From contig NZ_JAOQNS010000009.1 in assembly GCF_025961475.1 (NCBI RefSeq), positions 22,587-86,586 of the forward strand: DNA of 64,000 nucleotides. The letters run 5' to 3'. The notes below the pieces were generated by a model. That model worked only from the letters and a program-made list of their open reading frames with translations. It searched no databases and was not told where the DNA came from. Positions 2,608 through 57,774 of this stretch are shown piece by piece. This DNA comes from Rhodobium gokarnense. Lineage in GTDB: Bacteria > Pseudomonadota > Alphaproteobacteria > Rhizobiales > Rhodobiaceae. Made by a program: the position numbers and the translations under genes. Numbering within the stretch: position 1 is the stretch's first letter; every line of letters begins with the position of its first letter.

Positions 2608-3546
2608 TCAGGCCCGCGGATGTGCCTTCTGGTAGATGTCGAGGAGCCTGTCGCTTTCGACCGCGGTGTAGATCTGGGTGGTCGACAGGCTGGCGTGGCC
2701 GAGCAGTTCCTGGATTGCCCGGAGGTCTCCGCCGGCGCTGAGAAGATGCGTGGCGAAGGAGTGGCGAAGGGCATGCGGCGTCGCGGTCTCGGCAAGGCCG
2801 AGCGCGCCGCGCAGCCGCTGGACGGCGATCTGGATGATGCGCGGCGACAGCGGCCCGCCGCGCGCACCGACAAAGAGCGGCCCGTCCTCGGCAAGCGCAT
2901 AGGGGCAGAGCTTCAGATAGGCCGCAACCGCCTCGCGCGTTGCGGCGAGCACCGGCACCAGGCGGGTCTTGCCGCCCTTGCCGGTCACCCGCAGCGACTC
3001 GACGGTATCGACCGGCGCCTCGGCGCGGGAAAGGCCGAGGGCTTCGGAGATGCGCAGGCCCGAGCCGTAGAGCAGCGACAGAACGGCCGCGTTGCGCACG
3101 GCGATCCAGGGCTCCTCGTCGAGCGCCTCGTCGGCATCGACCATGCGCCGCGCCGAGGCCGCCGCGATCGGCTTGGGCAACGTCTTGGGCTGTTTCGGCG
3201 TGCGGATCGCCTTCAGTGCCGCGGCGTTGGCAAGGCCCTTCCGCTCCAGGAAGGAAAAGAACGAGCGCACGCCGGCAAGCGCCCGGCCCATGGAGCGCGG
3301 ACCCGCCCCGGCGCGCCGCCGGTCGGCGAGGAAGCCGCGGAAATCGGCCGGTTTCAGGTCGGCAATGTCGGCAATGCCCGGCGCGCCGCCGAGATGCAGC
3401 GTCAGGAAGGAGAGGAGCTGGCGGACGTCGCGCTCATAGGCCTCGACCGTCTTTGCCGCAAGCCGCCGCGTGCCGGCGAGGTGGGCGAGCCAGGCGGTCA
3501 CCTCCGCAGCAAGGTCGGGTCTGGCGGTGATCAGCGGCGCTGCCAT
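2608..3546 (-). CDS. xerC: tyrosine site-specific recombinase XerC/XerD family
   Basis: Catalytic C-terminal motifs ...RHSFATHLL... and LLGHASLSTTQIYT; start taken at MAAPLIT (ATG 3546) rather than upstream in-frame ATG. Confidence 0.8.
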   Translation of the reverse strand: MAAPLITARPDLAAEVTAWLAHLAGTRRLAAKTVEAYERDVRQLLSFLTLHLGGAPGIADIADLKPADFRGFLADRRRAGAGPRSMGRALAGVRSFFSFLERKGLANAAALKAIRTPKQPKTLPKPIAAASARRMVDADEALDEEPWIAVRNAAVLSLLYGSGLRISEALGLSRAEAPVDTVESLRVTGKGGKTRLVPVLAATREAVAAYLKLCPYALAEDGPLFVGARGGPLSPRIIQIAVQRLRGALGLAETATPHALRHSFATHLLSAGGDLRAIQELLGHASLSTTQIYTAVESDRLLDIYQKAHPRA

Positions 3547-55882: not shown

Positions 55883-56359
55883 ATGATCTGGAAAGCGAAA
55901 AAACCCCTGATCGCAGCGATGGCCATCGCCGCAGCCATGTCCCTGTCGAGCGAGGCGTTCGCCCAGCACGCCCGCTGTGACGCCCGTGCCCGCGCGGCGG
56001 CAAACGACCGCGTCCCGACCGGCGGCAACGTCATCGGCGGCGCCGCGGCCGGTGCTGTCGGCGGTGCCATCATCGGCGGTATCATCGGCGGCGGCCGAGG
56101 CGCGGCCCGCGGGGCCGCCATCGGCGGCGGTGCCGGTGCGGTCGGCGGTGCCGGGCGCTCCTCGATCCAGTGGGACCGCGTCTATCGCCGTGTCTACAAT
56201 CGCTGCATGAACCGCGCGGCGGATGTCGGCTACCGTGGCAGCGGCCCGAAGCCGTGGTCCCCGGCCTGGTACGACTACTGCTCGTCCAAGTACCGGACCT
56301 TCAATCCCGATACCGGCTACTATTTCTACGCCCCGGGCAGGCAGCGCTTCTGCCGCTGA
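55883..56359 (+). CDS. BA14K family protein (with glycine-zipper region)
   Basis: Signal peptide, Gly-zipper GGAAAGAVGGAIIGGIIGGG, C-terminal WYDYCSSKYRTFNPDTGYYFYAPGRQRFC characteristic of Brucella BA14K-type proteins. Confidence 0.85.
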   Translation: MIWKAKKPLIAAMAIAAAMSLSSEAFAQHARCDARARAAANDRVPTGGNVIGGAAAGAVGGAIIGGIIGGGRGAARGAAIGGGAGAVGGAGRSSIQWDRVYRRVYNRCMNRAADVGYRGSGPKPWSPAWYDYCSSKYRTFNPDTGYYFYAPGRQRFCR

Positions 56360-56403
56360 CCCAGGCAAGGGGGCCTGAGGGCCCCGCACGATGGGTGTTG
56401 GAG

Positions 56404-56433
56404 AACGCGGGCCTCGGCGCCCGCGTTTTTTTG
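56404..56433 (+). terminator. Rho-independent terminator after BA14K gene
   Basis: aacgcgggc-ctcggc-gcccgcgtt hairpin plus T7. Confidence 0.75.
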
Positions 56434-56560
56434 TTGGCGTTTTTGCAATGCCGGCAAGTGTTGCCCGCTATGGGGTTGCGCTTCTTGCGCTCCCGTTTTT
56501 CCTTCACTCAGCGTCGCGACAGGAGACGATCATGTGATCCATGAGATTGATTACGAAATC

Positions 56561-56974
56561 TCAGCTTATTATTCCACTTCCGCGCATACCGTCTTTCGCG
56601 GCGGAAATGAAATTTTCTTCATCATCTTTCTTGAAACCACGGAACGCCGCGATGAACAACGCAATCAAAATAGCCGTTATTGAAATAATAGGGGAGACGA
56701 CTAGTGCAATCGCATATGTTGCGGGAACAGTCAAAATTGTTCCCCAAATTACATTGTGTGACATGTGAAATAAGGCAAATGACATCATGAATATTATTGC
56801 GAGAGCAACAATAACGGCAAGCCAACGTAGATAATAGCGTTGGTCGGCTTCTCGATTTAAATTCTCTTTTGCCTTTGCGCTGGCCTCTAGGAGCCGAAAT
56901 TCAATGTTAGTCTGTCTTTGAGGTTGCGCTTTTTCTGCTTCAGGCTGCGCATCAATTGGCGGTACATCAATCAT
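56561..56974 (-). CDS. hypothetical membrane protein (2-3 predicted TM helices), candidate toxin partner of Panacea-domain protein
   Basis: 137 aa from MIDVPPIDAQ (ATG overlaps upstream stop as ATGA); hydrophilic N-terminal 50 aa then LRWLAVIVALAIIFMMSFALF and IWGTILTVPATYAIALVVSPIISITAILIALFIAAF hydrophobic segments; no family recognised. Confidence 0.55.
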   Translation of the reverse strand: MIDVPPIDAQPEAEKAQPQRQTNIEFRLLEASAKAKENLNREADQRYYLRWLAVIVALAIIFMMSFALFHMSHNVIWGTILTVPATYAIALVVSPIISITAILIALFIAAFRGFKKDDEENFISAAKDGMRGSGIIS

Positions 56975-57435
56975 TTCTGGGCATTCGCCTGCCGACGCTT
57001 GACTATGTAGTGGGATTGAATCAATTCGTTGGGGATCGGTGCATACCACCCGCCGAGACGGGTCGCAGTTTCCCACGGGCCACCTGGTTCATGGGTAATT
57101 TCGGATAGCCTAAAGGGCGTCATTGTGCCATAAATGTTATAGATCTGTTCTAAAAGGTTCTCCGTCGTTGGATCGTCAATAGTATCGGGATAATTAGAAT
57201 CTGGTTTAAAAGGTGTGACACCTTGTGGCCGAAAAGAATTGTAAACGTCCGGAATTACAGGGCCGTATTGCCATGCTTCAATGCGGTTTGGAAATAACGG
57301 GGCATTGTTGATTTCTAGGTTCCAGCCATGTGCGATATAGGTGAGCTTTAGCAGCGCCATTATGGATGGACATTGCCCATCACGCTTGGCGCGGCTCAAG
57401 AACCAATTGGCAATCTGCCGTGCATCGTATTGCAT
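56971..57435 (-). CDS. Panacea (DUF4065) domain protein, candidate PanA-type antitoxin
   Basis: IANWFLSRAKRDG...SIMALLKLTYIAHGWNLEINNAPLFPNRIEAWQYGPVIPDVYNSF matches the KLqKLlY...AW.yGPV.p.vY core of DUF4065/Panacea (SocA/GepA-like); ATG 57435 with GGGGTGA 6 nt upstream (alternative GTG 57444). Confidence 0.7.
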   Translation of the reverse strand: MQYDARQIANWFLSRAKRDGQCPSIMALLKLTYIAHGWNLEINNAPLFPNRIEAWQYGPVIPDVYNSFRPQGVTPFKPDSNYPDTIDDPTTENLLEQIYNIYGTMTPFRLSEITHEPGGPWETATRLGGWYAPIPNELIQSHYIVKRRQANAQK

Positions 57436-57459
57436 CTTATTCACCCCGCTAGCTCACTT

Positions 57460-57487
57460 AATATAATCAATTTCGTTGAGATTTCAA
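57460..57487 (-). promoter_or_regulatory. sigma70-like promoter of islet operon (TTGAAA-N16-TATATT) with upstream palindrome GATTCGAATC
   Basis: On minus strand: TTGAAA (57482-57487) - 16 nt - TATATT (57460-57465), about 25 nt upstream of ATG; perfect 10-bp palindrome at 57505-57514 just upstream of -35. Confidence 0.55.
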
Positions 57488-57774
57488 TGACTTGCTATCT
57501 AATTGATTCGAATCGTTTTTTTGCTGCGCCGCAAGTGATCCCGTCAGTTTTTCCGACCAGCGCTGCATTTGCGTTTTTTGAGCCGGGCAAATACCGCATG
57601 TGCCGTTTGCAGTGGTTCCGCTTTTCCTCAGAAGTGGACTATCGCTAGGTTGTAGTACGTAAGCGGCAGCGAAAAAGAATGAATTCAAAAGCCCTCCGGG
57701 TTGCCGAGGCAAGCCGGTCTCGATGCGGTGGGGCAGACGAAAGAGTCGTTCGCGCCCCGCACCGGCGAGGATGC

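Follow-up and report, generated by a model that had tools for sequence, protein, structure and literature searches.

An AT-rich islet of Rhodobium gokarnense is a horizontally acquired insertion that probably encodes a self-promoted PanA-PanT toxin-antitoxin operon

We analysed an AT-rich islet that lies between a BA14K-type gene and rppH in a 64,000-nucleotide stretch of the Rhodobium gokarnense genome (contig NZ_JAOQNS010000009.1, positions 22,587 to 86,586 of the forward strand; hereafter the window, in which all coordinates are given). The islet is the core of a 1.3-kb segment that the R. gokarnense lineage acquired horizontally between these two convergent genes, and its sequence makes it likely that the segment is a self-promoted type II toxin-antitoxin (TA) cassette of the PanA-PanT (PanAT) type, a two-gene operon with a probable membrane toxin. 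The insertion, its gene content, the identity of the antitoxin domain, the pairing of the two genes, the conservation of their promoter, their coupling and the predicted topology of the toxin were established here.

A search for RppH relatives in one genome per species yielded R. orientis DSM 11290 (95% identical) and 79 more distant loci (loci and contigs are given below as L numbers). R. orientis keeps the order ctpA, deacetylase, rppH and BA14K gene, and about 15 nt separate its BA14K terminator from the rppH stop codon, where the window has 1324 extra bp. By blastn and global alignment, homology between the window and R. orientis ends at 56439 on the left and restarts at 57764 on the right. 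Only R. orientis, among the comparators, shares enough DNA identity to place the junctions, which have only GGCG in common; the empty site GTGGGCGAGAAGGC holds this GGCG once. The segment and its borders were thus delimited as follows.

56440-57763, no strand: lineage-specific segment, the actual insert; 1324 bp, 47.6% GC; from blastn and global alignment against L002 (R. orientis)
56512-57617, no strand: AT-rich core; 45.8% GC, z = -8.6 against other 1106-bp windows
56436-56439, no strand: GGCG at the left junction; matches the right junction and is single-copy in the R. orientis empty site
57764-57767, no strand: GGCG at the right junction; 4-bp microhomology or ambiguity

In three further lineages, all metagenomic and with rppH 75-81% identical (L173-L177), rppH is convergent with BA14K or its glycine-zipper paralogue at a distance of at most 60 nt, and neither PanA, PanAT nor any similarity to 56440-57763 was found there. 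The gap between rppH and the BA14K-type gene or paralogue amounts to about 95 nt or less in four related lineages, in all of which the insert is absent, and PanA was close to rppH in none of the 79 more distant loci. Since the four related lineages keep the interval without the segment, we read 56440-57763 as an insertion, and the insertion into conserved synteny that an earlier reading of this DNA (hereafter the original prediction) had proposed is borne out. It is extremely unlikely that the segment is instead a retained region, already present in the ancestor of the genus and lost from R. orientis and the remaining relatives. The junctions do depend on a single close comparator, R. orientis, and the rppH/BA14K interval varies among relatives, some of which hold a paralogous gene of 111-113 aa; this alternative, however, requires independent clean losses in four lineages, the GC content and the GC content at third codon positions (GC3) of both genes are far off host values, and homologous cassettes occupy unrelated contexts and taxa, phage included. 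At the DNA level, relatives of the whole insert were not found in plasmids, and across 80 metagenome loci DNA matches were limited to the coding part of panA and a short stretch of panT. A Logan assembly contig (L001) carries the same region with 100% identity across the 3.5 kb compared.

Two observations on the interval were made alongside. The paralogue, which corresponds to the N-terminal glycine-zipper half of the BA14K-type protein and is 111-113 aa long (L173:4511-4846, L174:4526-4864, L176:5247-5588), sits between rppH and BA14K or past BA14K, depending on the relative, so that this convergent interval is variable even without the TA insert. The unrelated metagenome contig L104 has an rppH homologue and, about 2.8 kb downstream of it, a homologue of PanA with 65% identity (8-199 and 3001-3258); a response regulator and a riboflavin-type gene separate the two, and their proximity is probably a coincidence.

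The composition of the segment differs sharply from that of its surroundings. The GC content of the core is 45.8% against a window average of 66.9%, with dips to 39% in 200-nt windows, whereas other 1106-bp windows across the 64 kb have a mean of 67.4% (standard deviation 2.5, minimum 60.9%), which places the core at z = -8.6, so that the predicted drop in GC is confirmed as far outside chance. GC3 is 0.50 in panA and 0.38 in panT, compared with 0.91 in the neighbours rppH and PEPCK. The edges originally drawn at 56512 and 57617 hold for the AT-rich core but not for the insert, which the comparison with R. orientis extends to 56440-57763, about 220 bp more; the additional flanks are GC-richer, at 54% (56440-56511) and 58% (57618-57763). 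A comparable contrast was seen at 12 other loci, where the GC content of the cassette is below that of every measurable flank with the single exception of the left flank of L166, which bears a transposase.

The insert carries two genes on the minus strand, which overlap by four nucleotides.

56971-57435, minus: panA; 154-aa standalone Panacea-domain antitoxin; ATG start; GPV at residues 58-60
56561-56974, minus: panT; 137-aa putative membrane toxin; charged N-terminal helix, two transmembrane helices, C-terminal AAFRGFKxxD
56971-56974, minus: ATGA overlap of the panA stop and the panT start, read from the sequence; translational coupling

The pair has the features by which PanAT modules are recognised, namely the Panacea domain, the GPV motif and the conserved two-gene arrangement. 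PanA, which is 100% identical to the NCBI entry 'Panacea domain-containing protein [Rhodobium gokarnense]', matches Pfam PF13274 (SocA_Panacea) over residues 31-124 with an E-value of 5.3e-17 and 63.2 bits, against a gathering cutoff of 25.7. Its translation contains the GPV signature (...AWQYGPVIPDVY..., residues 58-60 of 154), a motif of Panacea that is critical for neutralisation (PMC8832971). A GTG three codons upstream is a possible alternative start, and the ATG at 57435 is favoured because homologues begin M-x-YDARQIANWF. The NCBIfam SocA profile spans residues 3-149 of 154 with 92.9 bits, below its equivalog cutoff of 190. Some PanAs carry an N-terminal helix-turn-helix (HTH) domain (PMC8832971); in the present PanA neither an HTH nor another N-terminal domain was found with Pfam and NCBIfam profiles, and since the Panacea and SocA profiles cover residues 3-149 there is no space for an N-terminal HTH.

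The 137-aa open reading frame (ORF) downstream is clearly a real gene, judging from its 23 homologues, their strict placement after PanA homologues and a family of 279 members. The homologues are 42-61% identical, and in every locus with enough downstream sequence (L082-84, L086-89, L093, L096, L099, L163, L166-169 and L170) a panT homologue lies directly downstream of a PanA homologue. A profile search of 1.84 billion representative proteins returned 279 representatives of the PanT family at E <= 1e-3 and 145 at E <= 1e-10, mostly of 130-160 aa, and alignments revealed the conserved motifs ENLNREADQRY, H-x2-H, AP-x-S and AAFRGFK-x2-D. In an AlphaFold2 model of PanT (pLDDT, the predicted local distance difference test, 74.8), helices span residues 18-77, 85-111 and 116-133, and the charged first half of helix 18-77 leads into the first hydrophobic segment of what is predicted to be a helical hairpin; hydropathy concurs in placing two membrane spans. 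PanT had no match in Pfam, NCBIfam, PADLOC or the sequences of the Protein Data Bank (PDB), and a Foldseek search of its model against the PDB gave nothing below E = 2.8. By sequence, no relatives of solved structure were found in the PDB for PanA either. The 137-aa panT is annotated by NCBI. The gene caller of the Logan contig missed it and instead placed a 49-aa ORF on the other strand (L001:7599-7748, equivalent to window 56534-56683, plus strand); automated gene calls in low-GC islets of high-GC genomes can miss toxin genes.

PanA-PanT modules were defined by Kurata et al. 2022, who demonstrated complex formation and direct, type II neutralisation (PMC8832971). As in the known systems, the gene of a standalone Panacea (DUF4065) protein that bears the GPV motif precedes and overlaps a small toxin gene in the window pair. 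For three PanTs that are predicted to have transmembrane helices, depolarisation or permeabilisation of the membrane was shown, and the validated membrane PanTs have a charged N-terminus followed by transmembrane helices (PMC8832971); the window PanT shares this architecture, with a charged N-terminus and C-terminal transmembrane helices. Ernits et al. 2023 reported that standalone Panacea neutralises directly, contacting the region before the transmembrane segment of the toxin (PMC10440598). PanAT modules are also often found near transposases or in phages (PMC8832971, PMC10440598), as are the relatives of the window cassette. Dataset S1 of Kurata et al. contains a toxin cluster, T24 (pT26), with eight alphaproteobacterial pairs from Ochrobactrum, Ensifer, Rhizobium, Pseudaminobacter, Thalassobius, Ruegeria and Sphingomonadales EhC05, and the EhC05 pair is given there as PanA with PanT cluster T24 in the arrangement A|T (PMC8832971). 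The EhC05 toxin P0138 matches the window PanT with E 2.7e-25 and 45% identity, and the PanA of the adjacent locus tag, P0043, is 65% identical to the window PanA; P0138 was equated with the Dataset S1 accession by inference, there being a single EhC05 entry. Because the P0043/P0138 pair is listed as T24, the window PanT is assigned by sequence to this catalogued, predicted cluster. The EhC05 pair resembles the window pair in its A|T order and its small overlap or gap, whereas R. gokarnense itself is absent from the T24 list. R. orientis, which lacks the insert, is listed in Dataset S1 with a different PanAT pair of toxin cluster T10 elsewhere in its genome (PMC8832971), so that the sister species carry different PanAT complements.

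The pair was also compared with more distant systems. An hhalign comparison of a 71-sequence PanT profile with the PanT of E. coli phage PhiR47_1 gave a probability of 57% and E 1.1e-4 over 40 columns that span transmembrane helix 2 and the C-terminal motif; for the T12 member of phage S1249 the probability was 1.5%, and both comparisons were also run with a narrower PanT profile. SocAB, the type VI TA system of Caulobacter, has an antitoxin with the same Panacea domain, and the SocA model aligns to residues 3-149 of PanA. The window pair differs from SocAB in that PanA scores 92.9 bits, short of the equivalog cutoff of 190, and in that its partner is a two-transmembrane membrane protein with no Pfam or NCBIfam match rather than a SocB-like replication inhibitor; standalone PanAs, moreover, neutralise directly without ClpXP (PMC8832971).

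Upstream of panA, the following two features bear on transcription.

57460-57487, minus: sigma-70-type promoter TTGAAA-N16-TATATT; 10/12 match; the -10 ends 24 nt before the panA ATG
57505-57514, no strand: perfect 10-bp palindrome GATTCGAATC; 17 nt upstream of the -35; probably fortuitous

Promoter-like sites number five in the region against 1.4 expected. The six closest loci keep TTGAAT/A-N16-TA(T/C)A(T/C)T at the same distance from the panA start codon (L162, L163, L166, L169 and L089 are named among those with TTGAAT/A-N16-TAxAxT), and TTGAA is invariant in a 7-sequence alignment of the panA upstream region; a more distant PanA clade has ATTCACA-N17-CTATAT instead. The strong minus-strand promoter of the original prediction is borne out by its 10/12 match and by its conserved position and sequence in close relatives, and comparative support that it is real is good. 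A second promoter-like site, on the plus strand (57440-57467, TTCACC-16-TATAAT, 10/12), shares sequence with the panA leader and is directed at the 3' end of rppH; the simplest view is that the AT-rich spacer gave rise to it incidentally.

The same conservation does not extend to the palindrome, which is present as described. The insert has one such 10-bp palindrome where shuffles predict 1.3, and the whole window has 145; at the equivalent position none was found in the six close relatives, which keep at most one half-site (L162: GAATCAAATC). The original suggestion that it serves as an operator for antitoxin autoregulation finds no support, given its chance frequency, its lack of conservation and a PanA without a DNA-binding domain, and it agrees poorly with Ernits et al. 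2023, according to whom Panacea is probably no transcriptional autoregulator of panAT operons (PMC10440598). Repression of the promoter through GATTCGAATC, whether by PanA, by its complex with PanT or by a host regulator, is therefore quite unlikely. What speaks for such an operator is that a perfect palindrome lies 17 nt upstream of the -35, where the chance of one within the 73-nt zone is about 0.04, and that many type II antitoxins autoregulate; it is nevertheless unconserved in the same six relatives in which the promoter is conserved, PanA has no HTH or other N-terminal domain, and a site upstream of the -35 is unusual for a repressor. Given that the palindrome is unconserved and PanA lacks an N-terminal HTH, the sequence leaves the operator reading unsupported.

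Candidate ends of the transcripts lie on either side of the operon.

56405-56432, plus: hairpin and T-run of the BA14K terminator; kept in R. orientis; read on the minus strand, it forms the first strong stem after panT
57672-57764, minus: two hairpins, with a U-rich tract after the second; immediately 3' of rppH, in the GC-richer right flank of the insert; minimum free energy -46.2 kcal/mol, z -1.9 (weak)

The minus-strand hairpin at 56405-56432 is likely the stop for the panAT transcript, and the terminator-like hairpins at 57672-57764, which a terminator scan did not detect, could insulate panAT from rppH read-through. Rfam families in the islet were limited to sub-threshold matches on the BA14K terminator; the 3' untranslated region and terminator of BA14K (56358-56432, plus strand) have such a match to the small RNA SorX (20.7 bits against a gathering score of 46.6, E 0.048), which is most likely mere similarity between terminators.

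The closest relatives of PanA (68-80% identical) all adjoin a transposase of the insertion sequence (IS) family IS1595, identified with NCBIfam NF033547 (E 7.5e-47). Their arrangements are as follows.

L082, L162, L169: DUF6471 gene (minus), transposase (plus), panA (plus), panT (plus); the L162 contig ends before panT
L163-165: transposase, panA and panT, then contig end
L166/167: DUF6471-transposase pair inverted relative to panAT

DNA identity between these loci is only about 68-71%, and beyond the four-gene unit their gene content differs, which argues that the unit DUF6471-transposase-panA-panT is old and travels together. Many PanATs are located close to transposase genes (PMC8832971). 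In a neighbour-joining tree the window PanA nests in a clade whose remaining members all adjoin an IS1595-family transposase, and these findings lend indirect support to the proposal that the islet is a decayed element or a cargo cassette. IS1595-family insertion sequences reportedly carry passenger genes, and the conserved unit of the nearest relatives fits this description, whereas in the window copy a transposase is missing, inverted repeats were not detected and the identity at the junctions is limited to 4 bp. Taken together, the sequences point to descent of the R. gokarnense cassette from the IS1595-linked unit as the most likely origin, its transposase having been lost or never received.

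The small DUF6471 gene of these units (about 79 aa, with HTH-like sequence such as VTYAQLAEKL; L169:3618-3857, L082:1646-1864, L166:3235-3471, L162:3-98) is always divergent from the IS1595-family transposase, with an AT-rich spacer full of ATATAT-type repeats between them, and it may be a regulator of the element. Comparison of L166:2181-3471 with L169:3618-4923 showed that the upstream gene, whichever it is, ends at a similar point roughly 75 nt before panA; the inversion in L166 relative to L169 suggests that the junction immediately before the panA promoter is prone to recombination.

A phage origin was considered as well, in which the cassette would be a prophage remnant, a moron-like unit left after phage decay. 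Paracoccus phage Psul1 has a homologous PanA-PanT pair near cI/cro (PanA 53% and its partner 32% identical, the latter with a pairwise E of 1.5e-16), PanA matches PHROG families, and the cassette has its own promoter and a low GC content, as morons do. On the other hand, no phage genes or att site surround the cassette, its flanks are housekeeping genes in conserved order, and its closest relatives adjoin an IS and are not in phages, so that we consider a prophage remnant distinctly improbable and descent from the IS1595-linked unit the preferred origin.

Two sequences near the edges of the islet had been proposed as a target-site duplication or att remnants.

56493-56511, plus: left 'direct repeat' of the original prediction; within the insert, 53 nt from the left junction
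57618-57631, plus: right 'direct repeat' of the original prediction; within the insert, 132 nt from the right junction

The repeats exist as described, but their significance is marginal (a local-alignment P of about 0.01 relative to shuffles), and several other sites of the window, panT included, match just as well. The role proposed for them does not survive the comparison with related genomes: both lie inside the junctions, and no copy of the motif was found at the five empty-site loci (four lineages) with 2 mismatches allowed, an outcome that the original prediction had itself named as counting against it. A longer, gapped repeat of about 60 nt (56440-56503 against 57574-57628; P about 0.01) was rejected, as alignments of equal score occur elsewhere and the empty sites have no counterpart. 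The original observation that the islet contains no integrase or transposase was confirmed from the ORF list and by tblastn with IS1595 transposases; a tblastn search with three IS1595 transposases and two DUF6471 proteins gave nothing significant, and thus no transposase relic, in the insert or the 64-kb window, and neither an integrase ORF nor a tRNA was found in or beside the insert. Site-specific recombination or transposition with the two repeats as its att or target-duplication remnants is accordingly very unlikely: that the repeats exist and that the longer gapped alignment beats shuffles is outweighed by the equal scores elsewhere, panT included, by the position of the repeats 53 and 132 nt inside the junctions, by the empty sites without a copy and by the lack of an integrase, a tRNA or a transposase. 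The insert thus departs from an integrase-type islet, and equally from an IS1595 element, given its missing transposase and terminal inverted repeats and its junctions that share only GGCG. IS1595-family target duplications are 8 bp long. Because the 4-bp GGCG misfits such duplications, we infer that integration may have occurred through illegitimate or microhomology-mediated recombination; the flanking repeats and the palindrome have no demonstrable role.

Several points weigh against the reading of the insert as a PanAT cassette of IS1595 descent. On the functional side, all eight pairs of cluster T24 are marked 'notest' in Dataset S1 (PMC8832971), Kurata et al. found no toxicity in E. coli for 8 of the 25 PanTs that they tried (PMC8832971), PADLOC defence models matched neither PanA nor PanT, and with the validated clusters T3 and T12 the window PanT shares architecture alone, sequence homology not being demonstrable. 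As to origin, descent from the IS1595-linked unit is drawn from phylogenetic bracketing only, no convincing terminal inverted repeats of the IS units were found in L169 and L166, and neither terminal inverted repeats nor an 8-bp duplication was found for the window insert. The flanks 56440-56511 and 57618-57763 may have arrived with the cassette or may be lineage-specific intergenic spacer, in which case they would count on the same side. The functional points, together with the lack of a significant match to solved structures, leave some room for the alternative that the 137-aa membrane protein is not a toxin and that the pair has another function, for example sensing or effector activity at the membrane, with PanA as the partner protein. 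This alternative appears unlikely in view of an architecture equal to that of the validated membrane PanTs, with a charged N-terminus and then transmembrane helices, and of strict pairing, translational coupling and mobility with IS or phage, all of which are typical of TA modules.

For the PanAT cassette, then, we propose the following course of events. A transcript would start near 57452 from the sigma-70 promoter and would encode PanA and then PanT, coupled by the ATGA overlap. By analogy with known PanATs, from which toxicity, neutralisation and the membrane target are carried over, free PanT would insert in the inner membrane and depolarise or permeabilise it, causing growth arrest, and PanA would neutralise PanT by direct binding, probably at the N-terminal region ahead of the first transmembrane helix. 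Together the two genes would serve as an addiction cassette, or possibly as an abortive-infection cassette, and the window copy would derive from the DUF6471-IS1595 transposase-panA-panT unit after the transposase was lost or without its ever having been received. As a more speculative extension, which we regard as possible rather than probable, the four-gene unit would be a TA-carrying transposable element with PanAT as its own addiction module, the promoter-panA-panT part of about 1 kb would persist or move without the transposase, as in R. gokarnense, and the T24 PanT with its H-x2-H and AAFRGFKxxD motifs would represent a distinct and widespread class of membrane toxins (279 representative clusters).

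As an ordinary member of a catalogued family, the cassette leaves the current understanding of TA systems unchanged. It provides a clean and datable case of a TA cassette that entered a housekeeping interval and for which sister lineages offer empty sites, and an intact representative of PanT cluster T24 for toxicity and membrane assays. In addition, the pairing of its nearest relatives with IS1595-family transposases offers a concrete and testable route by which PanAT modules may travel, which Kurata et al. noted only generally.

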